A stretch of DNA of 38,630 nt from an uncultured bacterium (GCA_937998345.1 CALLDH010000169.1:1-38630); one strand, 5' to 3'. Counted from the stretch's first letter, positions 5,739 to 25,793 are shown. Program-made: numbers and translations. Notes: generated from the letters alone by a model not told the origin.

Positions 5739-6686
5739 ATCGTTCTTTCACTGATTCTCGCCGCGACAAGCACGTCTGCCTGCAATGCTGAACGCGATAC
5801 GTCGCACACCCTGACGTCGTCGACCCCAGCTGCGTCCTCTCTGAAGCTACCTACCCCCGAATCGTTCTCCAAGCAGTACGCGAGCTTCGATGGCTATTGG
5901 TACCGAGGGTTCGCGGAGCTCACACGCTACGCGCTGCGCCAAGCTCGCTACGGAGAGCAGCATGAAGGCGAGGCCGTCTTGATCTTCGTGACGGAGGACT
6001 TCCTCCGTGGCCCTCAAGTCAAGCGGGAGAGGGGGGATTCGTCGGCCGCACTCTCGGTCCTCAAGCTGAACGCTTATCGTCGCTTCTACACCGGTATCTA
6101 CCCGTACACCCTAATGACCTCTTCGTTCACGCCTGCGGCGCGTAGGGATTCGCGAACGCTGAAGGTCAGCAGCTCGATGCAAGAGTGGTGCGGCAACGTG
6201 TACACTCAGATCAATCGTCGCAAGGATGGGCTGCACGTCACGCTGCACTCGTACTTTCAGGATGACGGGGACCAACAATCGATGCTCCCGGAAGCTCCGC
6301 TCGAAGACGGTCTATGGTCACTGATTCGGATCGACCCCTCGAAGATTTCGACCGGGGAGCGGCAAATGATCCCTGCGCTCCACTACATCCGAATGCGTCA
6401 CAAAGCCCTCCGGCCACATCCGGCCGAGGTCAGCAAGATTGACAAGGTCGCGACCGACCTGGTCGACCATCCAGTTTCTGCGGTCCGCGTCGAGTACGCG
6501 CACCTAGGACGCGAGCTCACGATCTATCACGAGCCGGAGTTCCCTTACATCATTCAGGCTTGGGAAGAAAACGTGGGGGCCCAACGAACCACGGCGGTGC
6601 GAACCCACGCCGTCGTCGATGACTACTGGAACCACAACTCCGCCGGGGATTCCACCTACCGCGAGGCCCTTGGGCTACACCACTAG
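5730..6686 (+). CDS. Conserved hypothetical lipoprotein
   Basis: Lipobox-like TSAC. Blocks YWYxGxAELTRY, QARYGE, AVLIFVTEDF, FYTGIYPY and SSMQEWCG recall an uncharacterised conserved family. Confidence 0.75.
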   Translation: MSRIVLSLILAATSTSACNAERDTSHTLTSSTPAASSLKLPTPESFSKQYASFDGYWYRGFAELTRYALRQARYGEQHEGEAVLIFVTEDFLRGPQVKRERGDSSAALSVLKLNAYRRFYTGIYPYTLMTSSFTPAARRDSRTLKVSSSMQEWCGNVYTQINRRKDGLHVTLHSYFQDDGDQQSMLPEAPLEDGLWSLIRIDPSKISTGERQMIPALHYIRMRHKALRPHPAEVSKIDKVATDLVDHPVSAVRVEYAHLGRELTIYHEPEFPYIIQAWEENVGAQRTTAVRTHAVVDDYWNHNSAGDSTYREALGLHH

Positions 6687-6767
6687 CCCGTAACCGGTTC
6701 GGGCTCTGGTCAGCATCCACTCGTGGAGTTTCCGGGCAGGCTGCGGAGCCAAGCTGCAGATTGCAAT

Positions 6768-7916
6768 TCACGTGCTCGTTGCCCGCCGGATGCCCCGGTA
6801 GATGACTTTGCCAACCGCGACGGGAAACAGTAGCCGCTGAACGGCCCATCGCGGGAAGCGGAAGCTACTGCCGTCGGGACGGAACACCCGAAGCCCGTCT
6901 TCCTGGACGCCCAGAATCGACCCCCAACGATATGGCGGCGGGCTGTACTGCTTCATCGCGTGTTCCTTGCCTTTCAGGGTGGCACGGACGTTATGGGCGA
7001 CGAGGCGGTAACCCCAGTTGCGGGCAGAGCTGCGATGCGGATCGGTGGCTGCAATGTCGCCCACGGCGAACACATTCGGATACCCCGGAACGCGCAGAAA
7101 TTGATCGGTCCGTACGAAGCCTCGCTCGTCTAGCATGTCCCCGGGAATGAAGCTGTTGTTCGGCCGCACGTGGCCCACCGACCAGAGGGTGAGGGCGGCC
7201 TCAAACGGGATCTGTCCTGTAGACCAGCTCACCGGACCGGTCGTGAACCGATCGAAGGCAAAGCCTTCGGGAATGAGGGCACGGTGCCCAGGGTGGAGCT
7301 CGACGCCGATCCGCTCGAGGTGGTCCTCGATCCGCTGTCGCACCTTCGGGTGGTAGCCCGGGAGTGGCTGGGGCTCGCTGTAGAAGAAATGGACCGTCTT
7401 GTCGGGGTACCTCTCCCGGACATTCGCGGCGACGCTGACGCCCGTCGCACCGCCGCCGATGATTGTGATGCTGTCTGCCTCGGCGATCTGCTCGGCCGCG
7501 CGACGGATGCCGTCCCTGATGCTCGTTAGATCCTCTAGCGCATCGTTGCGCCAGAAACCGTTTGCGACACCAGAAGAAATGACCAACGCGTCGTAGGGCT
7601 CGATCTGCTGATCCCCGTCGGGCAAGGTGACGGTGACCTGCTGCGCGCTCGTATCCAAATCGGTGATCCGGCCCTGTAGGACCTGCACGTCGTCCAGTCG
7701 CGGATAGCGGCCGAAGGACATGAGGTAGTTCTGCTTCCATACTTCAGGCCGCGTGAGGCGCGTCCCGAGCTCTTGTCCACTCACGAGGCAGGGCTTGGTG
7801 CTGATCCCGAGGACTTCGAATCCAGGGCCAAGATGAATCGCAACCAGTAGGCCCGTATCACCGAGCCCTGCAATGACCACGCGGGGGCGTGGCGACCGCC
7901 GACCAACGCGCCTCAT
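6768..7916 (-). CDS. FAD-dependent pyridine nucleotide-disulfide-type oxidoreductase (AIF/FSP1-like)
   Basis: VVIAGLGDTG, YDALVISSG, IIGGGATG, VFAVGD. Start at ATG 7916 by ATGA overlap with the SDR stop. Confidence 0.85.
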   Translation of the reverse strand: MRRVGRRSPRPRVVIAGLGDTGLLVAIHLGPGFEVLGISTKPCLVSGQELGTRLTRPEVWKQNYLMSFGRYPRLDDVQVLQGRITDLDTSAQQVTVTLPDGDQQIEPYDALVISSGVANGFWRNDALEDLTSIRDGIRRAAEQIAEADSITIIGGGATGVSVAANVRERYPDKTVHFFYSEPQPLPGYHPKVRQRIEDHLERIGVELHPGHRALIPEGFAFDRFTTGPVSWSTGQIPFEAALTLWSVGHVRPNNSFIPGDMLDERGFVRTDQFLRVPGYPNVFAVGDIAATDPHRSSARNWGYRLVAHNVRATLKGKEHAMKQYSPPPYRWGSILGVQEDGLRVFRPDGSSFRFPRWAVQRLLFPVAVGKVIYRGIRRATST

Positions 7917-8878
7917 GTGAGCTTCGCTTGACGATCGTCTGCGAGCGACTCGAGAGTGCCTGACCATCCGCTGTAGCGGCAGAGCTCGGACCACAAGGCC
8001 TCGCGCTCCTCGGCGGTTTCACGAGTTCTGGCGAACCGATGGGTTGGGCGTGGCGTTCGATCGTGCCAGAACTTGCCCGTGCTTCGCCCGGCTTCGTCTG
8101 CGGCGCAAAGCCAGACGATGGTATCTGCACCTTGCGCAGGGCTTCGCAAAAGCGCCTTCGTGAGCCTGTAGAAGCGCGGGAGAGAGGTTGAAACTCCCGG
8201 CGTGTCGGCCCATCCGGGATGCATGGAGTGCACGACCACGCCGCACGGAGCGAGCGCGCCGGCCCAAAGTTCGGTCAAGATGACCTGGCCCCGCTTTGTC
8301 CGGGCGTAGGCCTTCGCTCCGTCATATGTTCCGTGCGCGCTCTGCAGGTCGCTCACCGAGATGCGCTGAGCATACATACCGCCAGACGCCACATTGATGA
8401 TGCGCGCGGACGCGGCGAGTTTGGGGACCAGCAAATTCGTCAGCAAAAAGTGTCCGAGAAGGTTCGTCGCAAACGTGGTTTCGATGCCCTCAGCCGTCTC
8501 GGTGCGAGTAGGCAACAGGACTCCGGCGTTGTTGACGAGAATGTGAATCGGGGCTTCGATTCGCTTGGCGAGCGCGCGTACGTCGGACATCAAACTAAGG
8601 TCTGCGACCTCAATCCCGACGGCAGCGCTGCCAGTCTGCTCGGTGATGCCCGCTGCGACTTGTTCCGTCTTGTCTCGATTGCGCCCGACGAGCTGTACAG
8701 TCGCGCCGAGGCGCGCCAACTCCGTCGCGGTCTGCTTTCCCAGGCCGGATGTCGCTCCCGTGACCACGGCCGTCCGGCCTGTGAGGTCCGCATCGATGCT
8801 CGAGTGAGACCGCCAGCGGTAGCCAAGCGACGTATACCCGAGCAAAGACTTGTCCAAGATCCGATCACGCATCCACAC
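7913..8878 (-). CDS. Short-chain dehydrogenase/reductase (DHRS12-like)
   Basis: TGATSGLG, NNAG, catalytic YARTK, MHPGWADTPG. Confidence 0.92.
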   Translation of the reverse strand: MWMRDRILDKSLLGYTSLGYRWRSHSSIDADLTGRTAVVTGATSGLGKQTATELARLGATVQLVGRNRDKTEQVAAGITEQTGSAAVGIEVADLSLMSDVRALAKRIEAPIHILVNNAGVLLPTRTETAEGIETTFATNLLGHFLLTNLLVPKLAASARIINVASGGMYAQRISVSDLQSAHGTYDGAKAYARTKRGQVILTELWAGALAPCGVVVHSMHPGWADTPGVSTSLPRFYRLTKALLRSPAQGADTIVWLCAADEAGRSTGKFWHDRTPRPTHRFARTRETAEEREALWSELCRYSGWSGTLESLADDRQAKLT

Positions 8879-8941
8879 TACCTGGGACCAGTCGCATCGA
8901 TCCGCAACCGAGGCGCCGACGCGTCATTCGTACCTCCGACG

Positions 8942-9547: not shown

Positions 9548-9685
9548 TTAGGTCTGGACCGCGGCGCCATGCACGCGGCACATGCACCAGGTGCCTTGTG
9601 GAAACACGACACTTCGGAGCCCCGTACGCCACTGCTCAAGCGCGTGCCGGTGGGCCCGCCGAAACGCGCGAACCTCTCGAAGCGA
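9548..9685 (-). pseudogene. C-terminal remnant of the same RAYT-like transposase family
   Basis: LREVRAFRRAHRHALEQWRTGLRSVVFPQGTWCMCRVHGA aligns with VKRVRAFKAQYARALGAWTAGDRSACFPEGTWWMRVCHGA of 16180-17097. Confidence 0.8.
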
Positions 9686-9693
9686 AGGGCTAG

Positions 9694-10097
9694 CTAACTC
9701 TGCCCGGTCGGCTTGGCGTTGGCTTGAAGCACCCCACTGAACGAGTCGCGGTATGCCCACGCCAAGAAAAGCTGCATGACGACGATGAAGATCGCCATGC
9801 CCAGCCCAGCCTTGTCCATGAAAGTGTGGAAGAGGAGAATGTGGACCGACACGAGCGCGAGCAAGATCAGTCCGAGGGGAAGGAACCGCCCCGTCAGGAT
9901 CATCAGGACGGCGACCAGCTCGACCAGCTTCACGGCGATCATGAAGTACCCGGTGGCGACCAGCGCGCCCATCAACGACCCTGCAGCTTCGTTATCTCCG
10001 GCGCGGGAATGAAACTGAATTGGAAGAACCCGTGCAAACCAAACACCACGAAGATCAAACCCAGCAGCACACGTGCTCCGATGATGACAAACTTCAA
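9694..10097 (-). pseudogene. DoxX-family membrane protein with a 1-nt frameshift (pseudogene or sequencing error)
   Basis: SD aagggag then TTG at 10097: MKFVIIGARVLLGLIFVVFGLHGFF...PAPEI. Frame shifts near 9991-9995 to EAAGSLMGALVATGYF...LFLAWAYR. Confidence 0.8.
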
Positions 10098-12212: not shown

Positions 12213-12246
12213 GAAGAGATCCGGAAGAAGAGATCCGACCGAGGTT
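12213..12246 (+). repeat. Orphan copy of the RAYT-flanking motif with stutter
   Basis: gaagagatccg-gaa-gaagagatccgaccgaggtt; core at 12230-12246. Confidence 0.8.
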
Positions 12247-12594
12247 GAGCAGAAAGCCGGAACCCGTGGCGTCCTCACGCTGCCGCGTGCATCTCGTCGC
12301 AGACCGTCGCCAAGTCCTCGAGAGCGGTGGCGCAATCGCCTTCGAAGGACGAGCCGTGCTCTCTTCGCCCATCGGGCTCATGCTGAGGGCCCAAGTGCGC
12401 GGTACTGATTGTCATGTCGCGTCAGGAACCGCGCCGACAGGGCCTTTGTTCTTACTACCCTCGGGCATCAGCGGCGTTCAAGCACGGGATCATTGCAGCA
12501 GCCCGTGAGGTGAATCGGTTGCGCGCAGGTCGCCGTATCGCGCTAGAACTGCGCCGATTGGCGCCGTGAACCCCATAAATCCGGGACGGCGATT

Positions 12595-12610
12595 TGGTGC
12601 ACAACTTGCA
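12595..12610 (+). promoter_or_regulatory. sigma54 (-24/-12) promoter of the ALDH-amidase operon
   Basis: TGGtgcacaacTTGCA gives GG-N10-GC, followed by SD aaggagg before ATG 12649. Confidence 0.65.
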
Positions 12611-12648
12611 TCGATTCTCATGGCTTCAGAACGCAAGGAGGGCATGCC

Positions 12649-14434: not shown

Positions 14435-15928
14435 ATGTTTAACGAATACGTACAGTACGATGCCCTCGCTTTGGCGGAGCTCGTGTCCAAGGGCGAGGTT
14501 CATCCGAAAGAGGTCTTGGAGGCTGCCATCCGGCGCGCGGAGAAGCTCAATCCTCGGCTCAATGCGATCGTCACGCCGCTCTACGACTACGCGCGTGATC
14601 GCGTCCAGCAGGATTTGAGCGGCCCCTTTGCCGGGGTGCCATTTCTCTTGAAGGACGTTCACCACGCGTTGAAGGGAACGCCGATGAGCAATGGCAGCCG
14701 GCTTCACAAAGGCGAGGTTTCGGAGGTCACCGCGGAGATCGTGCGCCGGTTTCTCGACGCGGGCGTGGTCGTGTTCGGCAAGACCAATACGCCTGAATAC
14801 AAGCTCTCGGTGCTGACGATGCCGGAGGCTTGGGGGCCTACCCGTAACCCGTGGGACGTGACTCGGTTGCCGGGTGGTTCGAGTGGAGGATCCGCGGCCG
14901 CAGTCGCGGCTGGCATCGTGCCGATGGCATCGGCGACCGACGAAGGAGGATCGATACGGATGCCCGCCTCGGCATGCGGGGTGTTCGGCCTCAAGCCGAG
15001 CAGAGGGCGAAACCCGATCGGACCGGACTTCAGTTGGGAGGCCGAGGGGCTTTCGACCTCCGGTGTGATCACGCGCACGGTCCGCGACAGCGCAGCAATG
15101 CTCGACGCCACCGAAGGACCCGAGCCTGGCTCGCCCTACGTGGCGCCTGGGCCGACGGGCTTCCTCGCCGCTCTCAGTGATCCTCTGGGTCGACTGCGTA
15201 TCGGAGTTTCGACTGCGTCCAATGTCTTCGGAATGCCGATGGATGGCCCTTGTGTCGATGCGGTTCGCGTCACAGGTCTTCTTCTGCAGGACCTGGGCCA
15301 CGTGGTCGAAGAGGTGCCGCTTCCATACGACGAGTGGGAGGTGCTCCAAACGTTCCTGATTCTGCTTGCGGCCAATACCGCGGCCGTCATGACGGAGTTG
15401 GAGGGGCGATATGGCAAGAGCAGGGTTCGCGCTTCGCTCGAGGATGTCTCTCTTCTGCTCGGAAAGGTTGGCCGGGCCATGCCCGCCGAATCCGTCGGCA
15501 CCTCTCGAATCAACGCGCGTCGCATCGGCGCCAAGCTGGCGGCTTTCCATGACGACTATGACGTTCTGGTCACGCCCACGCTTGGACGCGTGCCGATTCC
15601 GATCGAGCAGGGCGAGCTCACCGCAGCAGAGAAGCGGCTCCTTCGCTTTGTGTTATCGCCTGCAGCGGCCGGCCTCTTACACGTCAGACGCTTCCTCGAG
15701 CGTATGATGGAAACTCAGACAGAATCGGTCGTCCGGCAAGTGCTGTGGCGAACGCCGATCGCTAATGTCGCTGGAGTCCCCGCCATGTCGGTGCCGCTTC
15801 ATCGAACCGAAAACGACCTGCCGGTCGGGGTGCAGTTCATTGGGCGCTACGGAGACGAAGTCACTCTCCTCAGGCTGGCCGCGCAGCTCGAGGAAGCCAA
15901 ACCTTGGCGCGTGGCTACGGGCACTTGA
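14435..15928 (+). CDS. Amidase-signature family hydrolase
   Basis: [47 protein letters not shown] at 14435 follows ggag. Confidence 0.93.
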
Positions 15929-16179
15929 ACGACCCCGGGGAACGGAAGAAGATCCAACCCACGTTGGCGGTGACGCAAAGCCGCGCGAAGCTGATCCAAG
16001 GCTTCTGGTCAGCGTGCGATGCACCCAATGGTGCCGATGAAAGCACCCGGAACACTCCACTATATCGCGAAGGGCGCGCTCGTCGCGGCCTCGCTCCAGG
16101 GAATTGGGCCCTCACCATGCACGCCGGCGCCCCCGCCCCGTAGGGCAGTCGAGAAAGCTCCGGCTGGGCATTGTGTGCT

Positions 16180-17097
16180 CTACGGGGCGGGCCCGCACCG
16201 CGCCCCGTGACACACCCGCATCCACCAGGTGCCTTCGGGGAAGCACGCGCTTCGGTCTCCAGCGGTCCACGCCCCGAGCGCCCGCGCGTACTGTGCCTTG
16301 AATGCTCGGACGCGCTTCACTGCCTCGGTGGCCACCGCTCGATGGCCCGCAGCGGCAAACTGAGGATTGAGGCTCCCAAACACTTCGTAGCTCTTGGCCC
16401 GCTTCGTGTGCGCGAGCTTGAGGACGCGCCTCGGGCCCACAAACGAGAGCCCTGTCCGCTTGGCCTTGTTCCACGCTTGATGTTGCTTGTCCCGCACGCG
16501 TTCGGCGATGCGCTGACGGGCGAGCTCAGGCCCATAGTCGAGTTCGAGTGCCACCGGCATCTGCAGCCGAAGCTCGAGCTCTTCGGGCCACTCAGGGTTA
16601 TTGGGGTCGAAGTAGTGCGGAGGGCGCTTGACCCGGATGACACGCGTCCCGACGTGTGGGGGGAGGGTGTGCGCTCCGGGCCAGTCTTTGGCGTACCGGA
16701 CGGCGCCTGCTTCGACCGGGTTGACGATGAGGTAGGCGATGGCCTCGACCATGGCTTCAGGCGTCAGCAGCACGTGGGCGCCACTACTATCCTTATTGAA
16801 AACTTCCTCGGGCCACCCGCGATAGGCCTTGGTGCACAAGGCGAGGTAGCGGTGAAAGGTCTGCAAGAACTTTGGGTACACGCCTCGCACGTCGGTGATG
16901 ACCTCGTGGGAATGAGTCGACATGAGGCACGCGGCGTGGACCAAGACACCATGGAGCTCGGCCGCGTAGGCGAGGCAATACCAATACACTTGCTCCATCT
17001 GCCGTGCTTCGTCCGGATTGAGAAGGAAGTGGCGGCGCGTGGTGCGACGAGAGAGCGCCAGGGTGGCGCCCGGATCCACAATGCGGGGTCGGGTCAT
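16180..17097 (-). CDS. REP-associated tyrosine transposase-like (HUH/Y1) protein with long C-terminal extension
   Basis: HUH motif CLMSTHSH; catalytic Tyr block AYLIVNPVEAGAV...DWPG; 305 aa. Confidence 0.88.
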   Translation of the reverse strand: MTRPRIVDPGATLALSRRTTRRHFLLNPDEARQMEQVYWYCLAYAAELHGVLVHAACLMSTHSHEVITDVRGVYPKFLQTFHRYLALCTKAYRGWPEEVFNKDSSGAHVLLTPEAMVEAIAYLIVNPVEAGAVRYAKDWPGAHTLPPHVGTRVIRVKRPPHYFDPNNPEWPEELELRLQMPVALELDYGPELARQRIAERVRDKQHQAWNKAKRTGLSFVGPRRVLKLAHTKRAKSYEVFGSLNPQFAAAGHRAVATEAVKRVRAFKAQYARALGAWTAGDRSACFPEGTWWMRVCHGARCGPAP

Positions 17098-17111
17098 ACC
17101 CCGTCGGTAGA

Positions 17112-17127
17112 AGCGAACGCCATGCCG
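17112..17127 (-). promoter_or_regulatory. sigma54-like promoter of transposase A
   Basis: CGGCATGGCGTTCGCT (GG-N10-GC), 14 nt before the ATG. Confidence 0.55.
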
Positions 17128-17186
17128 ACTCGGGGCCCTGTGATTTCCGGAGCTTGGCGGCGTGGCTGCGGCGGTTTCGTGAGCGG

Positions 17187-17219
17187 CCGCCGGCGGACGT
17201 CACTTCACGAGACTACAGC
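17187..17219 (-). repeat. Conserved GTAG + palindrome block (REP-like), copy A
   Basis: gctGTAGtctcgtgaagtgacgtccgccggcgg; 28/33 identical to 22835-22867. Confidence 0.75.
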
Positions 17220-17364
17220 GCTATACGCCAACACGTACTGCGTTTGGGGTAACCTCGGTAGAATCTCCTAATCTCCTTCTTGGCACCCCAGCTGGCGCAG
17301 CGGGGGCGCTCCCGTCACGCTGCATTGACTGGCGGTCGGAATCCCGTCGCTGTGGAGGCGCTAG

Positions 17365-18372
17365 ATGCGGTATTTCTTGGGAATCTTGGGAATCGTCTTG
17401 GTGGCTGCGCTTGGAGCGGCCGGGTTGAGTGGCTGCAGCGAAGCCGAGAACGCGGGTGGCACGGGTGGGACTGCGGGGACCGGGGGCACGGCTGGAGCCG
17501 GAGGCACGGCGGGAACCGGCGGGACGATCGAGGGGTTCGATCCGCTCGAAGGGATCGGAGATGTCGAGCTGGTCGTCGACGGATTCCTGTTTACCGAAGG
17601 GCCGCATTGGCGGGCGACGGAGCAGCGGCTTCTGTTCACCGACATTCCGGTAGGGGTGATCTACGAGCTGACGCCGCCGGATGATGTTCAGACGTTTCGT
17701 GAGGAAAGCCAGATGGCCAACGGGCTCGCTTCGGATTCCGATGGTCTCTTGCTTGCGGCCGAGCACGAGTCCCGGCGGGTGTCGCGGACGCTCGAGGACG
17801 GGACGATCGTGACTGTGGCAAGTGAGTACATGGGCGACTCGTTGAACTCGCCGAACGACATTGCGGTTCGGATCGATGGAACGATTTACTTCACGGACCC
17901 GCCGTACGGGATCAACCAGGCAACACAGCAGGAGCTCGACTTCAACGGTGTGTTTCGGGTGGACCCGGAAGGCGTGCTGACCGCGGAGTGGGAAGGCGAG
18001 CTGGAGTCACGGCCGAATGGGCTCGTGCTTTCGCCGGATGAGCGGCGCTTGTACGTGGCGGACACCACGGAGGGCGTGATGGTGTTCGATGTGAATGCCG
18101 ACGGTTCGCTTGGTGAAGAACAGGCCTTCGTTCCATCCGTGGCGGGCGCCGATGGGATGGCGATGGACACCGGTGGCAATTTGTTCGTGTCGACGGCGAC
18201 CGGCGTGCAGGTGTTCGACCCCGAGGGGACGCTTTGGGGGACGATCGAGATGCCGGAAGGTGCACTCGCACCGGCGAACTGCGCGTTTGGCGGAGACGAC
18301 GCGCGAACCTTATACATCACGGCGCGCTCGGCGCTCTACCAAGTGCGCTTGATGCGGCCGGGCTTGTACTGA
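17365..18372 (+). CDS. SMP-30/gluconolactonase/LRE family lipoprotein
   Basis: Lipobox LSGC, Gly/Thr linker, [42 protein letters not shown]. Confidence 0.93.
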
Positions 18373-18434
18373 GGGCTCTCGTCGCCCACTGGGCTCAAGC
18401 TGTGCACGTACCGCGCCGACGGGGCTGTTGTTCT

Positions 18435-18472
18435 CAATGCCGATCACTTCCGCCCCTAACTGATCGGCATTG
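18435..18472. mobile_element. 38-bp inverted-repeat mini-element (IS4-like ends) with imperfect 10-bp target duplication
   Basis: caatgccgatca-14 nt-tgatcggcattg, flanked by ctgttgttct and cttctgttct. The homologous site at 12428-12457 lacks it. Confidence 0.6.
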
Positions 18473-18527
18473 CTTCTGTTCTTACTATCAACCCCCGGCG
18501 TATGCTTACCACCATCGTGACGGCTGA

Positions 18528-18549
18528 GGCGCTGCGCTGACGCAGCGCC
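18528..18549. terminator. GC-rich hairpin between convergent genes
   Basis: ggcgctgcg-ctga-cgcagcgcc, a perfect 9-bp stem just after the esterase stop. No U-tract. Confidence 0.45.
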
Positions 18550-18558
18550 CCGTGATCC

Positions 18559-20391
18559 TTACTCACAAACGATGATGGTATCGCCGTTGCTCTCTTGGAA
18601 TGGGGGCGTGTTCGGTTCGGGTGGTTCGGGATCGTTGGCGAGGAGAAGCCCTGGGTTGGTGGCTTCGACGTTCCTCCAATCCGGATCGCGACCGTTGGGC
18701 CCGCTATTCAGCATGGCGTTGAGCCAATCGACCACGGTGGGGACACCACCGGTGGTGTCGTCGTAGACCTTGTCCCTGCCCCACGTCGTGTGCGCCGAGC
18801 CCGATCCAAAGTAGGATCGGTAGTTGTCCGGAACCGCGGAGAAGGTGTCTGCGGACTGCTGACGCGCCACGTCCCCGAAATCACAGGTCGCCTGCCACCA
18901 GGTCGCGGCGCCCAGCGGGCTCATCGTCAGCATGACGTTATAGAATCCGGTCTGCCCGCCCTGGCCTCCATCGTAGACCGTCGAGTAGTGCGCCCAGTTG
19001 CTCTCCGGGTAGTACTTCGCCACGGCCTCGGTGTAGGCAGGCATCCCTCCCCCCTCCGGGTCGAGTGCGTCCTCCACCCCGGGGATGTACTCAGGCAGGT
19101 TCGCGGCGAAGTTCCAGTTGCCAAACTCGTTCGTCAGGAACTCCTGCGTAATCACGCCGTTGCCAGCATCGGCAAGCACGTGGATCTGCGAGGCAGGCCA
19201 GACTTCGTGAAGAAGCGGCCCATTGAACCAGGCGCCATACGCTCCTGCGCTCGACCCTGTGACGAAGACCACCTCCGGGTCGTAGAAGTGCTCGCGAGCC
19301 CACTTCTCCGCGATTCGCGAATTGTGATAACCCCGATGCTCGATCGTGAGCTCGTCGGTGTACTCCTGGGTCGCGTTGCCGTAGTGGACGTCGCAGGTGC
19401 AGTAGGTGATGAAGACGGTGTGCCAGTCTTTGAAGGGGTTGTTCTCATTGTTCCGGTCGGCAAAGCCTGTGGTGGTCGAGTTTGGATTGTCGGCTTCGGT
19501 CGCAGTGGGCGAGCAGGTGGGGATTCCACACGTCAACGCATCCCAACAGGCGCCTCCGCCCTGATAATACATCACGAGCTTGTTGACGGTGCCGCGCTTG
19601 GCGAAGTAGCGATACTCGGACCCGGGCTCGATGCAGGTCGGGGTGAACGTCGTGCCTTTGTAGACGGTCTCCTCGGGCACGAGCGAGATGTAGCTCGCGC
19701 TCTCGACCCCCGGAGCCACGATCGTGTTCGAAACCACCTCGTCGACGAGCGCTCCGAAGTCGCTCCCCACCTGTTCCTGGGTGGCGTCGGTCGGGCAGTC
19801 ACTCGCGGTCGCCGTGTTCCAGGCCTGGATCCACGTGTTGGTCGCGTCTTCGATGGCACCGTCCACGATCGATCGATCGGGGTCCTCGTGAAGGTCGGAG
19901 ATGTAGACGCCCTCGGCGTCGAGAATCGTCGTGCAAGCATCGCCTGTCGCGGTCATCAGGTCGGACACGCACTGCGCCTGCGCCGCCTGACCGAGATCGA
20001 TGCCTACCGTGATCGTGTTGAAGATCTCATTGACCGCGTCCTCGATGGAATCCGCGGCGTCCCCCGAGGCGAGCGCGAAGCTATCGCAATCCGCGTCCTC
20101 GGTCTGGGCATCGTTTTCGGCATCACCCCACGCGGTGTCGAGCGCGTCTCCTGCTGCGGAGATCGCGTCACCGCGGGCAGTCACGTTAAGATCCAGGGCG
20201 TACGCGGCCCACGCGCCCATGACCGTTTCGCAGAATGTCCCTGCCGCCGCCTGCTTGTCCCCAATGCAGATGTTCGCTGCGTACGGTTCCGGACGGAACC
20301 GCGTGGTGCCGCCAGAAGAATCACTACTACAACCCGCACTGAGCGCGACGGGAATCGCCAAACAAGCTACGACAAGCTTAATCATTCGCAT
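18559..20391 (-). CDS. Pectinacetylesterase/Notum-like esterase lipoprotein with acidic Cys-rich N-terminal domain
   Basis: SD ggagg then ATG 20391; lipobox LSAGC; YQGGGACWD, YCTCDVHYG, nucleophile TGSSAG, LADAG. Confidence 0.88.
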   Translation of the reverse strand: MRMIKLVVACLAIPVALSAGCSSDSSGGTTRFRPEPYAANICIGDKQAAAGTFCETVMGAWAAYALDLNVTARGDAISAAGDALDTAWGDAENDAQTEDADCDSFALASGDAADSIEDAVNEIFNTITVGIDLGQAAQAQCVSDLMTATGDACTTILDAEGVYISDLHEDPDRSIVDGAIEDATNTWIQAWNTATASDCPTDATQEQVGSDFGALVDEVVSNTIVAPGVESASYISLVPEETVYKGTTFTPTCIEPGSEYRYFAKRGTVNKLVMYYQGGGACWDALTCGIPTCSPTATEADNPNSTTTGFADRNNENNPFKDWHTVFITYCTCDVHYGNATQEYTDELTIEHRGYHNSRIAEKWAREHFYDPEVVFVTGSSAGAYGAWFNGPLLHEVWPASQIHVLADAGNGVITQEFLTNEFGNWNFAANLPEYIPGVEDALDPEGGGMPAYTEAVAKYYPESNWAHYSTVYDGGQGGQTGFYNVMLTMSPLGAATWWQATCDFGDVARQQSADTFSAVPDNYRSYFGSGSAHTTWGRDKVYDDTTGGVPTVVDWLNAMLNSGPNGRDPDWRNVEATNPGLLLANDPEPPEPNTPPFQESNGDTIIVCE

Positions 20392-20442
20392 ACGAACCTC
20401 CATGGAATGCCGTCTTTTCCTATAGATTTCCTCCAAGTTCAA

Positions 20443-20460
20443 GAGATTTTACCGACATTG
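20443..20460 (+). repeat. Degenerate orphan copy of the RAYT-flanking motif
   Basis: gagattttaccgacattg versus gagatcctaccgacgttg at 22787; intergenic. Confidence 0.55.
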
Positions 20461-20706
20461 CGCTCGGGCGTCTCGAGGAAGACGGCTTCGTCATTCTGGA
20501 AGACGTTCTCACTTTCGGGGTTCGTAGAGAACCTGCGCGAAGAGATGCTGGCGATGCTCGGGTACAGCATCCACAGCGCCCTCATGGGGTACGTCGACGG
20601 CCGAGATCCGAAGCACCTTTTGGGGGACGGACGGCTAGTCAGGAGTCGCCTTGATCCGGGTCGCCCAACGCGCGTCGCAGAATACCGCGCGTGAACGAGC
20701 GCGAAG

Positions 20707-21159
20707 TCAAAGGGTGATCAAATCGCCAAGGCGCTCGACGATCTCGTCTTGCTTGCTCGCAGCCAAATCTTTGTCGAGCGCGGCCATCACGAGCTGAGCC
20801 GTCGGGCCGTCGAGGGAAGACCGGAGCAATCCCAAGAACTTTGGCGGCGCAACGAGAACCACGCCCCTGTATCGATTCTGCACGCGAGCATCCTGGAGCT
20901 TGTCGGCCAGCGCTCTCGCGAAGTCGGAAACCGCTCTATCGTGCGGGCCTTCGCTCTGGCCCATCGACGCGCGGCCAGGGTCACCGCTGTTTTTGCGAAA
21001 AGAGCGGCCAGGACGGTCGGAAGCCATGTCCCGATCCCGTGCTCGACCCTCGGGGTGCTCGACCTCCTCGACGAGCTCCAGCCCCGTTCCGCGACCGCGG
21101 TTCTCGAAGAATCGAGCCCCCGCCTCGTGAGCGACTACAATCCATGTGCTGGTCATCAT
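20707..21159 (-). CDS. Host attachment protein (baeRF12/AtsE-like)
   Basis: TWIVVAHEAGARFF, SDRPGRSF, FARALA, LVAPPKFLGLLR, DKDL; SD gggagg. Confidence 0.88.
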   Translation of the reverse strand: MMTSTWIVVAHEAGARFFENRGRGTGLELVEEVEHPEGRARDRDMASDRPGRSFRKNSGDPGRASMGQSEGPHDRAVSDFARALADKLQDARVQNRYRGVVLVAPPKFLGLLRSSLDGPTAQLVMAALDKDLAASKQDEIVERLGDLITL

Positions 21160-21179
21160 CTGTCCTCCCTTGTTGCAAC

Positions 21180-21310
21180 TCAGGATGTGGGTAGTGAACG
21201 AAGCGCCTGGAGCTCGATTATCTGCTTCGAGTCGTCCCCGGCGATGACCTCGATGCCCGACAGCATCCCCGATTCTTCGCGAATGTAAATCTCTTTCGGC
21301 CTCGCCACCC
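21180..21310 (-). pseudogene. C-terminal gene fragment, DUF5335-like
   Basis: VARPKEIYIREESGMLSGIEVIAGDDSKQIIELQ recalls the DUF5335 C-terminus. No matching N-terminus upstream. Confidence 0.4.
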
Positions 21311-21318
21311 GGTCGGGA

Positions 21319-21490
21319 TCAGTCGACCCAGAGGAAAGCTTCGGGCCAGCGGTTCCGCATCCAAGCCACGCCGGCTCCCACCGCATCGTCCAGCGCGAAC
21401 GAGGGAGCATACCCAAGTGCCCGAATCCGCCCATCGTCGAAGTGGCTCGCGCACGCCAAGATTCTTTTTGGCCCATTGGGACGATGTTTT
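21319..21490 (-). pseudogene. C-terminal remnant of an NAD-dependent epimerase/dehydratase
   Basis: HFDDGRIRALGYAPSFALDDAVGAGVAWMRNRW* matches the usual extended-SDR tail. Confidence 0.45.
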
Positions 21491-21782
21491 GGGCCGAGTT
21501 GCGCGGTACTCGCTTGTTATGTCGTGTGGGGCGCGAACCGAGTCCATCAACCAGTCGGCGTGCGCAGCCTGGTGAAGCAAGCCGTCTGCAATTGCAATGG
21601 GACGATAGAGCGAAAGCATGGCTTCATCCCCCTTGCCCCCCGGGTCGGGTCGCCCACCTGCCAACCTTCCGGGTCCGTGAATCGCCTACATTGAGGCTCT
21701 TCATACTCAAAGTGTGCGCTCGAAGGACAACGCGGTTCATACGCAATTCCTATCGCTAGCGCCCGTGCCGTTCCGTAGAGTT

Positions 21783-22721
21783 TCAGTTCGCAGGGACGGT
21801 CGTCGCACTCTCGATTCGAAAGTCGAAGCTCTCGTCGATCTCCGCGTGTTCCCGATGGCCCTCTTCGACGAAGACGACCTTGTTCTTGATTCTGCCGGTG
21901 GCGGTGCCATGGGAACCGAGGGTCCTGAGGTCGAGACGAATGTGACCGGTCGCTATTGTTTGACCCGACTCGACTTCGAGCGAAGATTCATCCTCGGCGA
22001 ACTCGACGATCTGACGGTTGCCGCTTCGCGCAAACTCCACGTCGAGAACAACCTGGTCTCCGTCGCGCTCCACCAGGGTGTAAATCGCCTCCTGCACCAT
22101 CTTGACGCCGTGGAGCGCCAACATGCCTCGAACTGCCCAACGGGCGCCCACACCGACCTCCTCGTTGGGAAGGGCCACGACAGAGACGAGCGAGAACGCG
22201 TTGGTGATGGTCCAGAGTAGACGCAGAGGTACGTCGACGGCCTTTTGATTGTAGCGAAGGCCGCGCACATGACCGCTGTCATCCATTGCGTTCCACGAAC
22301 CCGTGCCTTTCAAGAAGTCCGTGTGCACCTGGATGTCCTCGAGGAGCTTCTCGCTGGCACCGGGCCCAGCCACGGCCTTGGACTCGACAATCTCGAAGTC
22401 ATAGCGGATCTCTTGCTCATCGACCTTCGCGGGCCCGATCACCGCGTGTATCTCCATTTTCTGCAGTCCGGATACGGTCGTGGTCGGGCTGCCGTGCTCG
22501 GATGGGATGACTCGCCACGACATCTTGGAAGTCGTCGTCGTCCCCTCCGCGATCGCGTAGCGCAGCAGGCTCCTCGGCTCTTCGCCCGCGTCTAGGAGCT
22601 CTAGCGGAATGAAAGGAGGCGCCTCTGCCGCAGGCGGTGTCTTGCAGCCAATGAGCAACAAGACGAGGCAACCCAGAATCCAGTGCTCTCGAATCATCGA
22701 AAAGGTCCTCCCGATAGTCAC
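21783..22721 (-). CDS. Hypothetical lipoprotein
   Basis: Lipobox LIGC; LLDAGEEPRSLLRY and LPNEEVGVGARW blocks typical of myxobacterial lipoproteins. Confidence 0.8.
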   Translation of the reverse strand: MTIGRTFSMIREHWILGCLVLLLIGCKTPPAAEAPPFIPLELLDAGEEPRSLLRYAIAEGTTTTSKMSWRVIPSEHGSPTTTVSGLQKMEIHAVIGPAKVDEQEIRYDFEIVESKAVAGPGASEKLLEDIQVHTDFLKGTGSWNAMDDSGHVRGLRYNQKAVDVPLRLLWTITNAFSLVSVVALPNEEVGVGARWAVRGMLALHGVKMVQEAIYTLVERDGDQVVLDVEFARSGNRQIVEFAEDESSLEVESGQTIATGHIRLDLRTLGSHGTATGRIKNKVVFVEEGHREHAEIDESFDFRIESATTVPAN

Positions 22722-22750
22722 GCAGATTGCGGCATAGTACCGGAACCGGA

Positions 22751-22803
22751 CAGAGATCCCAGAGATCCCAGCAGAGATCCTACCCAGAGATCCTACCGAC
22801 GTT
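22751..22803 (+). repeat. Stuttered terminal motif of element B
   Basis: cagagatcc|cagagatcc|cag|cagagatcctacc|cagagatcctaccgacgtt. Confidence 0.9.
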
Positions 22804-22834
22804 GTGCAAAGCGAAGCGCGCTCTCGGCGATTCG

Positions 22835-22867
22835 GCTGTAGTGTCGTGAGGCGGCGGCCGCCGGCGG
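22835..22867 (+). repeat. Conserved GTAG + palindrome block (REP-like), copy B
   Basis: gctGTAGtgtcgtgaggcggcggccgccggcgg; ends in the perfect palindrome ccgccggcgg. Confidence 0.75.
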
Positions 22868-22937
22868 AGTCTGGCGTACCGTCAGCAGTGTTGGACGCGC
22901 CGGTCTAGAATTTGCGGGGAATGTTGACACTGAGCTC

Positions 22938-22953
22938 CGGCACGGTTCTCGCT
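22938..22953 (+). promoter_or_regulatory. sigma54-like promoter of transposase B
   Basis: CGGCACGGTTCTCGCT (GG-N10-GC), 12 nt before ATG 22966. Confidence 0.6.
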
Positions 22954-22965
22954 GGGGCTCATTGC

Positions 22966-23883
22966 ATGACCCGACGACGCATCATCGAGCCCGGCACCAC
23001 TTGGGCACTCTCACGACGCACGACCCGGCGCCACTTCCTGCTCAATCCCGACGAAGCTCGGCAGATGGAGCAAGCGTATTGGTACAGCCTGGGATATGCG
23101 GCCAATGCGCACGGCGTCTCCGTGCACGCGGGCTGTCTAATGTCGAGCCACTCCCATGAAGTGGTCACCGATGTCCGCGGGGAGCTCCCCCGCTTCCTTC
23201 GCACCTTCCACCGCCTTCTCGCGCTGATTACCAAGGCCTATCGCAAGTGGCCGGAAGAGGTTTTCAACAAGCGCAGCACGGGCGCCCATGAGCTGCTGAC
23301 GCCACAAGCCACGATTGAGGCGCTGGCCTACCTCATCGCCAACCCCGTCGAAGCGATGGCGGTGCGCTACGCCAAGGATTGGCCCGGCGCACACACTCTG
23401 CCTCGAGACATCGGTACGCGCGTCATCCGCGTGCGTCGACCGGACCACTACTTCGACCCCCACAACCCCGCATGGCCTGACGTCATCGAGCTTCGATTGG
23501 GGATGCCGGCAATGCTCGAGCTGGACCATGGGGTTGAGCTTGCTCAGCAACGCATCGCCGCGCGCGTCCGAGAGCGGGAGCGCGGTGCGTTGCGGGAGGC
23601 CAGGCGAAGCGGCCGCAGCTTCGTCGGACCGCGACGGGTGCTTCGGCTCGCGCATACCAAGCGGGCCCGAAGTTACGAAGAGTTCGGAAGCCTTGACCCT
23701 CAGTTCGCTGCTGCCGGGCATCGAGAGGCGGCTGTGCATGCGGTGCGGCGTTTGCGGCGATTCAACGCCCAATATGACAAGGCGCTTCACGGCTGGACGT
23801 CAGGTGACCGTAACGCGTGCTTCCCAAGTGGCACCTGGTGGATGCGGGTGTGCCACGGGGCCCGCTGCGGTCCGGCGCCGTAG
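22966..23883 (+). CDS. REP-associated tyrosine transposase-like (HUH/Y1) protein, paralogue of 16180-17097
   Basis: CLMSSHSH and AYLIANPVEA...DWPG. ATG 22966 gives 305 aa, colinear with copy A. Confidence 0.88.
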   Translation: MTRRRIIEPGTTWALSRRTTRRHFLLNPDEARQMEQAYWYSLGYAANAHGVSVHAGCLMSSHSHEVVTDVRGELPRFLRTFHRLLALITKAYRKWPEEVFNKRSTGAHELLTPQATIEALAYLIANPVEAMAVRYAKDWPGAHTLPRDIGTRVIRVRRPDHYFDPHNPAWPDVIELRLGMPAMLELDHGVELAQQRIAARVRERERGALREARRSGRSFVGPRRVLRLAHTKRARSYEEFGSLDPQFAAAGHREAAVHAVRRLRRFNAQYDKALHGWTSGDRNACFPSGTWWMRVCHGARCGPAP

Positions 23884-24201
23884 GGTCGTTCCAACCGTAT
23901 CCGTCACCGTTGTGAAGCTTGGACCTCGACGGCGTCCGACGGCGTATCGGTGCGTCCGGAGCGCGACAACTCGGACAGCGAACCCGCCCCACGAGCTCGC
24001 AAGCAGGTGAATGGGGCTCAATCGGGCCGCCGAGCGCGCGTCGCGGGCCCTCCGTGAGCGACCAACTGGACCCGCAGCACCCACTCATTGACCGCCAACC
24101 TCGGTCGGATCTTTATAATCGGGGTTCTGTCGTCCGGCGCCCCAAGCACCACGGGCTCAGAGCGATCCGCGACGAGCTCGGTACCTGAGCGACGGCTCTG
24201 T

Positions 24202-24750: not shown

Positions 24751-25659
24751 TCAGCCGTGCGCGTCGAGCCAGCCGGCGATCCGCGGCCAAACTTCCTCGC
24801 TCGCCGCCTTGCTGATGATCATTTCGACGTGGCCGTAGTCCTTGCTGAACCCTTGCTCGACGCCAAGCAGCACCCAGGCCTTGTCTTGGCTACCCACTGC
24901 GTCGAAGAGCAGACGGCAACCGGTCGCGGGATCGTTCTTGTCGTTCGACGCAGCGAAGGCCAACAAGGGTACTTCGATGCGACGCACTCCATCCCAGTAG
25001 TTGCGCCCGTCCTCCGTGAGCCATTGCCGATTTGGCCCTTTCCATCGATAGAAGTCGAGCATGTAACCGCGCGACTCTGGCTCCGGCCCGAGGCGAAACA
25101 GGCGCGCCGGGACTCGTCCGAGGAGGGTGAGCAGACCCCATGCGGCGGCTCGGGGCACCGCTCGTTGCATCCAACTGTCGCCTTCGCTGATGTTGGCGCC
25201 GAGGACCACCGCCGAACGCATCTGTTCGCCCGACGTCCAACCGCCAGCAAGAGAGCCGACAATGGCGACGCCACCCCAGGAGTGACCGACCCAGTGCGCG
25301 TGCTGACCCGTTTCCGCAGCCACCATTTGTTGAACCGCGGGCAGATCCCAGCGCATCTGATCCTCGGCGCTCCAGTTGCGATAGCGCCTGTCGCGGGTTG
25401 AGCGCCCGTGACCGCGCATCTCCGGAATCCAAACGTCGTAGCCATGCTGGAGGAGGTGCGGGGCGAGGCCGACTCCTTTGCTCGAAACCCAGAAGCTACG
25501 TTGGCAAAAGGTGCCGTGCACCAGAACTACCGGCTCACGAGCGCCATCATCTGAGTCGTCAAGAAGCCGAGTGATCGCGATCTCTACATCGTCCTCGGTC
25601 TTGATCCGATAGACTCGCGCGCTCACGGGCCCAATCCGATCCTTCTGGAACTTCGCCAT
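24751..25659 (-). CDS. Alpha/beta-fold hydrolase
   Basis: VLVHG, EMRGHG, nucleophile GHSWGG, acid SNDK, DYGH. Confidence 0.9.
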   Translation of the reverse strand: MAKFQKDRIGPVSARVYRIKTEDDVEIAITRLLDDSDDGAREPVVLVHGTFCQRSFWVSSKGVGLAPHLLQHGYDVWIPEMRGHGRSTRDRRYRNWSAEDQMRWDLPAVQQMVAAETGQHAHWVGHSWGGVAIVGSLAGGWTSGEQMRSAVVLGANISEGDSWMQRAVPRAAAWGLLTLLGRVPARLFRLGPEPESRGYMLDFYRWKGPNRQWLTEDGRNYWDGVRRIEVPLLAFAASNDKNDPATGCRLLFDAVGSQDKAWVLLGVEQGFSKDYGHVEMIISKAASEEVWPRIAGWLDAHG

Positions 25660-25793
25660 CGTGTTCCCCGTAGCTCTCTTAGCCCACTAGGCGCATGTTG
25701 AGAACCGAGCTGCGCGGTACTACGTGTGGCGTCGACGTCCTCAGACTCGACGAATCGCCCTTCTGGTCCCAACACGGTCGCGACCGCACGAGG

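Follow-up and report, generated by a model that had tools for sequence, protein, structure and literature searches.

RAYT-like HUH/Y1 transposase genes between short inverted end motifs in a marine-sediment myxobacterium

To our knowledge, HUH/Y1 transposases are understood only for elements with hairpin ends (IS608 and ISDra2) and, in part, for REPs, and the HUH/Y1 enzymes studied to date require hairpins. The layout in which a Y1 gene is flanked by terminal inverted repeats (TIRs) has rarely been studied, and there is little literature on it under the names TIRYT and TIRtron. In the main-text descriptions, these are RAYT-like genes lying between TIRs at fixed distances, sometimes as dimers or in clusters, as named in 2013 (Di Nocera, De Gregorio and Rocco, PMC3733652) and discussed again in 2018, mostly within TnpA-Y1 subclass 2.1 (Quentin et al., PMC6006769). 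The majority of the TIRs described there carry a GGGGWSAS motif, with TIRs lacking it also listed (PMC3733652), and subclass 2.1 is given a median protein length of 238 aa and the Pfam HTH families Bac_DnaA_C, HTH_23 and HTH_28 (PMC6006769). Subclass 2.3, from Chromatiales/Alteromonadales, is described with a median of 325 aa and a within-genome identity of 74.8% (PMC6006769).

The window analysed here (38,630 nucleotides; GCA_937998345.1 CALLDH010000169.1:1-38630) derives from a marine-sediment myxobacterium (Myxococcota) and contains two diverged units of ~1.3 kb, W1 and W2, with one gene each. A preliminary description had assigned them to a distinct class of HUH element, on the premise that RAYT-like genes normally lack TIR-like ends. 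That premise is not supported by the main-text accounts of TIRYT/TIRtron, which are already of this kind (PMC3733652, PMC6006769); what stood of the earlier interpretation is the enzyme type, the defined ends and the additional C-terminal part, while the distinct class did not. As TIR-flanked RAYT-like genes were already named in 2013, the W1/W2 family differs from TIRYT/TIRtron in motif, in phylum and apparently in its C-terminal part, and not in kind, and we read it as belonging to that known kind rather than to a new class. Common to both, as far as the main texts describe TIRYTs, are a RAYT-like Y1 gene, TIRs instead of REP hairpins, a near-constant distance to the CDS and few or no dispersed copies. 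The inverted-repeat flanks at a roughly fixed distance are thus present here, whereas GGGGWSAS is not, the end motif being RAGATCCGACCGASGTT with the core CCSASGTT. Further differences from those descriptions are the length of the proteins (305 aa, against the subclass 2.1 median of 238), in which Pfam searches found none of the listed HTH families, and the host phylum, which is absent from the main texts of PMC3733652 and PMC6006769. Whole-unit copying, for which there is evidence here, goes beyond what the same main texts describe. With exactly mapped ends of 17-22 nt, one small gene and a deeply conserved core, the family is a clean test case for this layout.

The two units and the genes between them

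Unit W1 spans 15949-17267 (1319 bp) and unit W2 spans 22787-24113 (1327 bp). Their parts, and two related features elsewhere in the window, are as follows.

9563..9697, minus strand: family-gene remnant whose 45 aa resemble residues 255-299 (tblastn)
12216..12262, plus strand: solo motif and one truncated outward copy, then the first part of a conserved module without a gene (GAGCAGAAAG..)
15949..15971, plus strand: 3' end of W1, inverted motif AAGATCCAACCCACGTT plus GGCGGT (exact motif match)
16180..17097, minus strand: W1 gene for a 305-aa RAYT-like HUH/Y1 protein (ORF)
17098..17250, minus strand: 5' leader of W1, with the family-conserved block GATTnC..TGTnnTTTCGTGA..GGCGGCCGCCGGCGG (5' ends aligned by eye)
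17251..17267, minus strand: 5' end motif of W1, GAGATTCTACCGAGGTT (exact motif match)
17270..17275, minus strand: truncated outward copy GAGATT at the 5' end of W1 (read from the sequence; fits the quantified reiteration pattern)
22753..22786, plus strand: three truncated outward copies at the 5' end of W2 (GAGATCC, GAGATCCC, GAGATCCTACCC), with short fillers between them (read from the sequence)
22787..22803, plus strand: 5' end motif of W2, GAGATCCTACCGACGTT (exact motif match)
22966..23883, plus strand: W2 gene for a 305-aa RAYT-like HUH/Y1 protein, with H62-S-H64, catalytic Y122 and YLIANP
24091..24113, minus strand: 3' end of W2, motif AAGATCCGACCGAGGTT plus GGCGGT (exact motif match)

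The 3' end of W1 begins 20 nt past the stop codon of an amidase gene, and the solo motif is placed between genes for an MFS transporter and an aldehyde dehydrogenase. A motif scan found no end motif near the remnant.

The unit lengths, the stop-to-end distances (231 nt in W1 and 230 nt in W2) and the 20/23 nt shared by the downstream ends agree with the preliminary description, as does its estimate, made by eye, that the paralogues are three-quarters identical (228/305 residues, 75%, gap-free). The DNA in between is indeed diverged: the 5' ends match at 15/17 positions and the 3' ends with GGCGGT at those 20/23, compared with 51% identity for the leader, 72% for the CDS and 40% for the 3' untranslated part, and the ends are the most conserved DNA of the unit. 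Because each 1.3-kb unit holds just one gene, there is no tnpB inside it, in line with the earlier remark that none is adjacent. A promoter scan detected no sigma-70-like promoter in either W1 or W2.

W1 (minus strand) and W2 (plus strand) face each other across 5.5 kb that hold a lactonase-like gene, a pectin-acetylesterase-like gene, a Host_attach gene and one more, with the similar 3'-type ends outermost. The whole span of 15949-24113 might therefore be a composite transposon that mobilises the four inner genes, and the absence of detectable lactonase and esterase genes from the close relative G032 would fit such a history. However, G032 has the Host_attach gene (96% identity) with neither element beside it, the esterase gene occurs in 21 of the 41 genomes of the genus (51-70% identity), 11 relatives' esterase loci have no family genes or window neighbours within 1.5 kb, and a second copy of the 8.2-kb span was not seen. 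The esterase-gene loci of relatives thus lend the composite transposon no support, and we consider it very unlikely.

The protein and its C-terminal part

Among 68 sequences reaching down to 30% identity, H62, H64 and Y122 are invariant and N126 is nearly so; the two window proteins read YLIANP and YLIVNP at the tyrosine. The AlphaFold2 model of the W2 protein (pLDDT 96.7) has as its best match among solved structures E. coli TnpAREP (4er8; Foldseek E 7.8e-6; VIA Z 14.2, with 155/165 residues aligned), followed by the IS608 and ISDra2 TnpA proteins. The features of the HUH/Y1 superfamily, namely the HuH metal-binding motif, a single catalytic tyrosine and the Y1 fold, are all found, and both window proteins have the class 2 tyrosine motif Y---NP. 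They are RAYT-like HUH/Y1 nucleases, as the preliminary description had proposed. In profile libraries, PF01797 gave weak matches in 33/68 relatives and none to either window protein at E<=1, and NCBIfam REP_Tyr_transpos (NF047646) scored 30.3 bits (W1) and 33.4 bits, below its cut-off of 80. Values of dN/dS lie between 0.04 and 0.15 across the compared pairs, and the protein is under strong purifying selection.

Compared with E. coli TnpAREP, about 140 residues are added at the C-terminus (the preliminary description, right as to their existence, had put them at about 160 aa), and they match no known family; as first suggested, they may serve to recognise the motif. The C-terminal sequences gave no Pfam match, neither Bac_DnaA_C nor HTH_23 nor HTH_28 was hit by 68 full-length and 39 C-terminal sequences at E<=0.1 and E<=1, and a profile search of PDB sequences was likewise negative. 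When the whole model was used in a fold search, residues 250-298 matched helical hairpins only, at a Z of 4.0 that is not meaningful, and a stored Atlas homologue is annotated as 'transposase family, Y1_Tnp, Myxococcota' and no more.

The family resembles REPtrons (RAYT/TnpAREP) in its best structural match, the Y..NP motif, inverted cognate repeats, low copy number and diverged paralogues, and departs from them in the low NCBIfam score and the C-terminal addition. With IS200/IS605 elements it shares the HUH/Y1 fold and a small single-gene unit lacking target duplications, whereas its protein is twice as long and no tnpB is present in the unit. Also comparable is TnpA-Y1 subclass 2.3, which is described in the main text of PMC6006769 as having long proteins with a subclass-specific C-terminal domain, several moderately identical copies and no REP. 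By that description the two are nonetheless set apart, since subclass 2.3 has NHYH and YVDLNP where S(T/S)HSH and YLI(A/V)NP are found here, its 55-aa beta3-alphaC insertion is absent from our model, and the host phylum differs.

The inverted end motifs

Exact matches to RAGATYCNACCSASGTT occur in the window at 15949 (+), 17251 (-), 22787 (+) and 24097 (-), all pointing inwards as first described, and at a fifth position, 12230 (+), which the preliminary description had omitted. Five matches compare with 0.02 expected, and 0/100 shuffles gave five; the motif is not there by chance. The end consensus here is an inverted motif of 17-22 nt, RAGATCCGACCGASGTT(GGCGG), and 51 aligned 3' ends give RAGATCCGACCGAGGTTGGCGG. 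The proposal that these motifs form defined ends at conserved distances also holds in relatives, where the upstream motif is found 160-215 nt ahead of the ATG in 56/73 loci (clustering at 168-171 and 177-180 nt) and the downstream motif ends 215-280 nt after the stop codon in 53/62 loci (mostly 227-241 nt), and where homology stops at these points. On the two sides, 97 and 92 matches are on the expected strand versus 2 and 3 on the opposite one. Even in subfamilies at 42-45% and 30-36% identity, inverted ends of variant sequence retain the core (6/9 and 9/12 loci, respectively).

The ends are non-palindromic, as claimed. When both DNA strands of all four W1/W2 ends were folded, the folds were at shuffle level (z -1.6 to +1.3), and a 5-bp mini-stem that the 3' end might form showed no covariation (0.177 vs 0.176; 242/500 shuffles were as high). 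Shuffle-level folding together with the lack of covariation rules out REP-like hairpin ends, and there is no GTAG tag in the end motif, unlike the GTAG- or CGTC-tagged palindromic REPs of REPtrons. IS200/IS605 ends likewise differ, being subterminal hairpins at both ends on one strand without inverted repeats, although some distant branches of the superfamily do have hairpin ends and the end repeats in one of them (G105) are directly oriented. The lack of an evident hairpin, given that the studied HUH/Y1 enzymes need one, counts against the reading of W1 and W2 that we favour below.

A genome scan, one of the checks first proposed, found 10 motif copies at <=1 mismatch in the 3.47-Mb MAG; in three further genomes (3.5-5.4 Mb) the counts are 3, 7 and 9, and about half of the genomic copies adjoin family genes. 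With just 2-14 copies per genome in the wider set, compared with tens to hundreds for the repeats of REPtrons, a genome-wide repeat family is ruled out. The motif is not exclusive to W1/W2-type units, because it also heads the conserved gene-less module, which occurs in 17/41 genomes of the genus; one genome with such a module has no gene of tier A (the window's own subfamily, >=55% identity). Neither the window nor 7 solo-motif loci matched an Rfam family at gathering score, and no tRNA was found at the solo-motif loci.

Alternatively, the motif might serve the host, for instance as a terminator or operator, or be recognised by another recombinase; it would then persist near the gene only within untranslated regions, with the HUH protein inactive on it. 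The modules that it heads lie upstream of ordinary genes, and the reverse complement of each 3' end scores as a weak hairpin of terminator type with a T-rich run behind it. Yet terminator-like counts are at shuffle level (2 vs 1.3 and 1 vs 1.0), the motif stands inverted at both ends where it marks the breakpoints of homology, and its core, unlike the diverging leaders, follows the protein from 100% to about 30% identity. The absence of target duplications argues against a DDE enzyme acting in trans. A host signal or foreign site is, on this evidence, highly improbable.

Discreteness, age and borders of the copies

The W1 copy in G032 is 92% identical in DNA (protein 95%, dN/dS 0.09) over a stretch limited to window positions 15948-17269, and it occupies a different context. 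Within one genome, two copies (L076/L078) are 99.2% alike over 1439 nt, where the similarity stops, and in five further copy pairs homology likewise ends at the motifs. Contigs of other copies end exactly at 24113/24114. The unit is therefore discrete, with borders at the motifs or 1-4 nt beyond; it is present at different loci in related genomes and was copied whole within one genome.

Most copies are old lineages persisting in place. The median identity of within-genome pairs is 79% (n=62), with just three pairs above 90% (100, 93 and 91%), as against a mean of 99.4% for the IS200/IS605-type subclass 1.1 as described in PMC6006769, and the nearest relative lies in another genome for 54/63 copies and in the same genome for 9/63. 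Two pairs, L023/L047 and L028/L060, are syntenic.

Such observations could also indicate domesticated, immobile RAYT-type genes that process cognate repeats in place to the host's benefit, as REPtrons do, and that owe their locations to ordinary rearrangements. Several diverged lineages with few recent duplicates per genome would be expected of such genes, as would orthologues that keep synteny and are under purifying selection (L023/L047, with 6.9 kb that are 93% alike and dN/dS 0.10) and the fixation of W1 and W2 in contigs from runs of 4 studies, and RAYTs have been characterised as housekeeping-like in Bertels 2017 (PMC5581495). Against this, the 99.2%-identical pair is confined to the unit, G000 and G032 carry one lineage at separate loci, its breakpoints coinciding with the motifs, gene fragments and remnants exist, there is no repeat population to service, and distant branches are clearly multi-copy (5 copies in G198 at 88-97% identity; two in G105 at 96.5%). 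We regard domestication as unlikely, and read the units as long-lived, seldom-moving, IS-like elements of the TIRYT/TIRtron kind. The combination of old, syntenic, selected copies with rare whole-unit copying is relevant to the question of whether genes of this type are selfish, domesticated or intermediate. The old, fixed look of most copies fits a domesticated gene equally well and is a point against the IS-like reading.

Target duplications are ruled out, as flank repeats are at the level of shuffled pairings (>=2 nt in 5/39 elements vs 3.4; >=3 nt in 1/39). No empty site was found in relatives, where it had been suggested to look: the amidase orthologues of 13 relatives have no neighbours that are conserved, and G032 has different genes at both sites, which are replaced rather than empty. 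Metagenome contigs from runs of the 4 studies bridge all four junctions and gave no excision joint or clean empty site, although contigs cannot show absence; in the two joints listed, the shorter side is 22-23 nt long, and resembling motifs from other copies have probably been joined. That neither an empty site nor an excision joint was seen, and that the same motif heads gene-less modules, also weighs against the IS-like reading.

At the borders, a 7-mer of the end itself is found again in the 60 nt outside it for 38/109 ends, compared with 2 inside and 8 for flanks taken from other loci, and 101/172 of the outside copies begin between -4 and +2 relative to the border. These outward reiterations are full or truncated copies of the end that begin at the border, with a fixed start and a variable length.

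Taken together, we favour, with a probability of roughly two in three (0.68), the reading that each unit is a self-contained IS-like element whose sole gene encodes a RAYT-like HUH/Y1 transposase acting on the inverted ends, putative border nicks included. The inverted end motifs of 17-22 nt would be the sites of the enzyme. Where and on which strand the enzyme nicks, and how copying proceeds, is pure inference on our part: the motif-bearing strand would be nicked at the outer border of each end, and so on opposite strands at the two ends; Y122 would bind the 5' phosphate and leave the 3'-OH of the flank free; short strand-displacement synthesis from that 3'-OH and subsequent rejoining may give rise to the outward reiterations; and full mobilisation of the unit would be rare. 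That a Y1 HUH transposase working on short non-hairpin inverted ends by opposite-strand border nicks follows a pathway distinct from both IS200/IS605 'peel and paste' and REP processing, with the reiterations as its scar, is a tentative and rather doubtful suggestion. If true, the modules that begin with the motif but hold no gene might be non-autonomous partners, or sites at which the elements preferentially land. The natural border scars suggest a cut position for the enzyme, which makes a nicking or strand-transfer assay easy to design.

The length of the stutter region varies among strains, and a contig from another metagenome is without 13 nt at 22772. Beyond the 3' end of W2, an insertion of 19 nt at 24116-24118 is present in one strain.

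Two units and the ends of their family

The window comes from a MAG of 3.47 Mb (346 contigs, 63% G+C), whose relatives are Myxococcota/Polyangiales MAGs. It carries two units, W1 and W2, each consisting of a RAYT-like gene between inward-pointing copies of a short motif, RAGATYCNACCSASGTT. The two genes, and the exact matches located by a motif scan of the window, are as follows:

12230, + strand: fifth exact match to RAGATYCNACCSASGTT
15949–17267: unit W1
15949, + strand: exact match to RAGATYCNACCSASGTT
16180–17097, − strand: W1 gene, 305 aa
17251, − strand: exact match to RAGATYCNACCSASGTT
22787–24113: unit W2
22787, + strand: exact match to RAGATYCNACCSASGTT
22966–23883, + strand: W2 gene, 305 aa
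24097, − strand: exact match to RAGATYCNACCSASGTT

The five matches compare with 0.02 expected by chance. As the preliminary description had it, the two 305-aa paralogues are about three-quarters identical (75%, without gaps), each gene is enclosed by one inward-pointing pair of motifs, the units measure 1319 and 1327 bp, and the distances from stop codon to unit end are 231 and 230 nt. The ends are the most conserved DNA between W1 and W2 (15/17 and, for the downstream ends, 20/23 nt as described), and the reported divergence of the interior was likewise found, with identities of 51% in the leader, 72% in the CDS and 40% in the 3′ untranslated part.

We surveyed the ends at the best 80 of 104 loci confirmed in public genomes, plus both window copies, counting the motif at up to 3 mismatches to a stricter core and using only loci with enough flank. 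An upstream motif lay 160–215 nt before the ATG at 56/73 loci and a downstream motif ended 215–280 nt past the stop codon at 53/62, which upholds the proposal that the motif is enriched at other family members and held at conserved distances. Within 650 nt, 97 and 92 matches fell on the expected strand and 2 and 3 on the opposite one. The 3′-end consensus of the family is RAGATCCGACCGAGGTTGGCGG. Subfamilies of the same genus, with 42–45% and 30–36% protein identity, have inverted ends of their own (for example, AACCCGACCCGGGTTGGCG or AACCTTCCCAGGTT), which were found at 6/9 and 9/12 loci, respectively, with a shorter upstream distance. Since the core CCSASGTT is common to all variant subfamily ends found, down to 30–36% identity, the ends have accompanied the protein through deep divergence.

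The HUH/Y1 protein and its relation to known systems

Neither window protein has a Pfam match at E ≤ 1, and the NCBIfam model REP_Tyr_transpos covers residues 3–140 at 30–33 bits, short of its cut-off of 80. When 1.84 billion cluster representatives were scanned in full, 2395 relatives were found at E ≤ 0.001; among the matches listed, most keep the length of ~300 aa, with full-length alignments down to 32% identity. Support for the RAYT-type HUH identity put forward earlier came from both sequence and structure. Across 68 aligned sequences, 33 of which weakly match PF01797, there is no variation at Y122 or at H62 and H64 of the HuH motif (H-S-H in this case), and N126 of the Y..(A)NP motif, which in Quentin et al. 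(2018; PMC6006769) is the tyrosine motif of class 2, is nearly invariant. The closest solved structure to an AlphaFold2 model of the window protein (pLDDT 96.7, pTM 0.93) is E. coli TnpAREP with bound REP hairpin (4er8; Foldseek E 7.8e-6), followed by the IS608 and ISDra2 TnpA proteins; by VIA, model and 4er8 gave a Z of 14.2, with 155/165 residues aligned over model residues 1–237. The extra part is indeed present and matches 0 Pfam families and 0 PDB sequences; it amounts to ~140 residues, made up of insertions after residue 140 and of residues 238–305.

The possibility that the ends are REPs was ruled out, given the lack of hairpins beyond shuffles and the low copy numbers. DNA folding of either strand of the four window ends gave nothing more stable than shuffles did, and a candidate 5-bp stem at the 3′ end, itself derived from the consensus, was pairable in 90% of cells with no covariation. 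The motif has 10 copies in the MAG of the window, 3–9 in three other genomes and 2–14 in five more; the reversed-motif control in the genome scans gave 0 matches. On the gene sense strand, the 3′ motifs of W1 and W2 each form a weak hairpin of terminator type with a T-rich run after it (15954–15967, − strand; 24088–24108, + strand); such structures were counted no more often than in shuffles. Read inward, the flanks of both ends are T-poor, each of the 20 flank positions having T in 1–8 of 39 sequences.

RAYT-like genes were originally considered normally to be without TIR-like ends, and hence the units a distinct class. This is contradicted by the main text of Di Nocera et al. (2013; PMC3733652), where TIRYT/TIRtron denotes RAYT-like genes with flanking TIRs at fixed distances, at times clustered; according to that of Quentin et al. 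(2018), these largely correspond to subclass 2.1, with a C-terminal HTH. The present family, with its RAYT-like gene and TIRs at fixed distances, has the same layout. It differs, going by the same texts, in its motif (the published one being GGGGWSAS), in its unassigned and probably different extra domain, which gave no match to the HTH families of subclass 2.1 in Pfam or to PDB sequences, and in its host phylum, Myxococcota, which is absent from both main texts. A full-text literature search for TIRYT or TIRtron found no works beyond these two, and a search for HUH tyrosine transposases with terminal inverted repeats in Myxococc* returned nothing on this family. The preliminary description is confirmed as to its observations, and its interpretation is right in part: going by these searches and main texts, the family is well defined, has not been described before and belongs to a known but experimentally untouched kind.

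Movement, reiterated ends and age

Sequence comparison shows a discrete unit that has changed place. The counterpart of W1 in a close relative (G032) matches it at 92%, a match limited to window positions 15948–17269. Elsewhere, DNA identity between the two genomes is 82% in the amidase gene and 91–96% in other flanks. In the relative, no element follows the amidase gene; the W1-type element adjoins the 3′ end of the PNPOx-like gene and, along with a 3.1-kb gene encoding a Cys-rich repeat protein (>900 aa), replaces the α/β-hydrolase gene of the window (24782–25675). Empty sites had been suggested as a check; the relative offers no clean one, having other genes at both sites; at that of W2, between Host_attach and PNPOx, an MBL-fold hydrolase and a methyltransferase stand in place of the ORF at 21783–22721 and W2. 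Two of its contigs, C266 (locus L097) and C41 (L096), share the end of the PNPOx gene before parting, suggesting that they are strain variants.

Two copies within one genome (L076/L078) share 1439 nt at 99.2% identity; the match begins just outside the 5′ motif, ends just past the 3′ motif and goes no further. Similarity also stops at the motifs in L013/L072, L004/L024, L040/L028, L029/L028 and L022/L038. No target duplication was detected (flank repeats of at least 2 nt in 5/39 elements versus 3.4 expected from shuffled flank pairs), which fits an HUH rather than a DDE enzyme. In other Myxococcota families, distant branches occur in several copies per genome: five at 88–97% identity in G198 and two at 96.5% in G105. 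Distant members of ~30% identity have two differing ends with short hairpins in G120 (L156–L160), or the same GACCGTGGGTC-like hairpin at both ends in direct orientation in G105 (L161–L163); these units are nearer to the IS200/IS605 layout.

The ends are reiterated outward, as at both window units:

17270–17275: reiteration of the W1 5′ end
22753–22786: reiteration of the W2 5′ end

At least two motif copies were present on 24/73 upstream and 23/62 downstream sides. The end's own 7-mer recurred within 60 nt outside at 38/109 ends, compared with 2 inside and 8 when the flank was taken from another, random locus; an extra copy was full at 24 ends, and truncated copies were present at 23. Outside copies of at least 8 nt numbered 172, at 73/106 ends; 101/172 begin −4 to +2 from the first base of the motif, with lengths varying from 8 to 100 nt. 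Small indels at these very borders set strains of other sediment metagenomes apart from the window: at W2, a 13-nt deletion at 22772, in the stutter array, and a 19-nt insertion at 24116–24118, 3 nt outside the 3′ end; at W1, a 1-nt insertion at 15940, 9 nt outside the 3′ end. Contigs of other copies break off at 24113/24114. The fixed start, outward-only position and variable length of the reiterations suggest a scheme in which the enzyme would nick the strand that carries the motif, on the outer side of each end and hence on opposite strands at the two ends; the 3′-OH of the flank would prime short strand-displacement synthesis; and the enzyme-bound 5′ end would be rejoined, duplicating the first n bases. 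The complete but rare outcome may be copying of the whole unit.

Most family copies look old and stable. The median protein identity of pairs within a genome is 79%, the nearest relative is in the same genome for only 9/63 copies of multi-copy genomes, dN/dS is 0.04–0.15 (11 pairs), and synteny crosses species at L023/L047 and L028/L060. The W1 locus (15400–17800) is present in 19 sediment or marine runs from 9 studies; runs of 4 studies yielded contigs across all four element junctions and no excision joint. The family occurs in 12/12 sampled genomes of the window's genus and in 34/201 sampled Myxococcota genomes (20/142 genera), and the copies nearest to those of the window are largely restricted to its genus.

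Gene-less modules and other intergenic repeats

The end motif, often with outward stutters, also heads a conserved gene-less module of ~85 nt (TTGASCAGAAA..TCACGCAAC..GACCGATAAGCGCGG), at the following sites:

12216–12262, window
6466–6842 and 8567–8930, contig C333 of the window's MAG
about 650–736, contig C174 of the same MAG
L122 and L124–L137, further loci

The module pattern has 23 matches in 17/41 genomes of the genus (reversed control, 0), and the motif preceded the module in 15/15 instances inspected. In one genome (G008), a full-pattern module and a variant copy are both motif-headed, and no close family gene (at least 55% identity) is present. Behind some modules lie a terminator-like hairpin and a string similar to the 3′ end of a tRNA; no tRNA and no Rfam family was called in the motif-headed modules. 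A solo 5′-end-like fragment (L120; contig C245 of the MAG, 5990–6090) combines the motif AAGATCCGACCCAGGTT with ~85 nt of leader of the family type, in which GGCGGCCGCCGGCGG occurs, and is not followed by a transposase gene.

Another intergenic repeat, ~60–95 nt long (..TTGCGCGGTACT..ATGTCGCGT..), with no Rfam match at gathering score, is 72–86% identical across several contigs and G032:

12358–12452, 21468–21533 and 25673–25736, window
contigs C21, C242, C245, C261 and C333 of the window's MAG
G032, the close relative

Finally, TGGTGCACAACTTGCA at 12597–12612, upstream of an aldehyde dehydrogenase gene, resembles the consensus of a sigma-54 −24/−12 promoter and is a putative promoter of this type.
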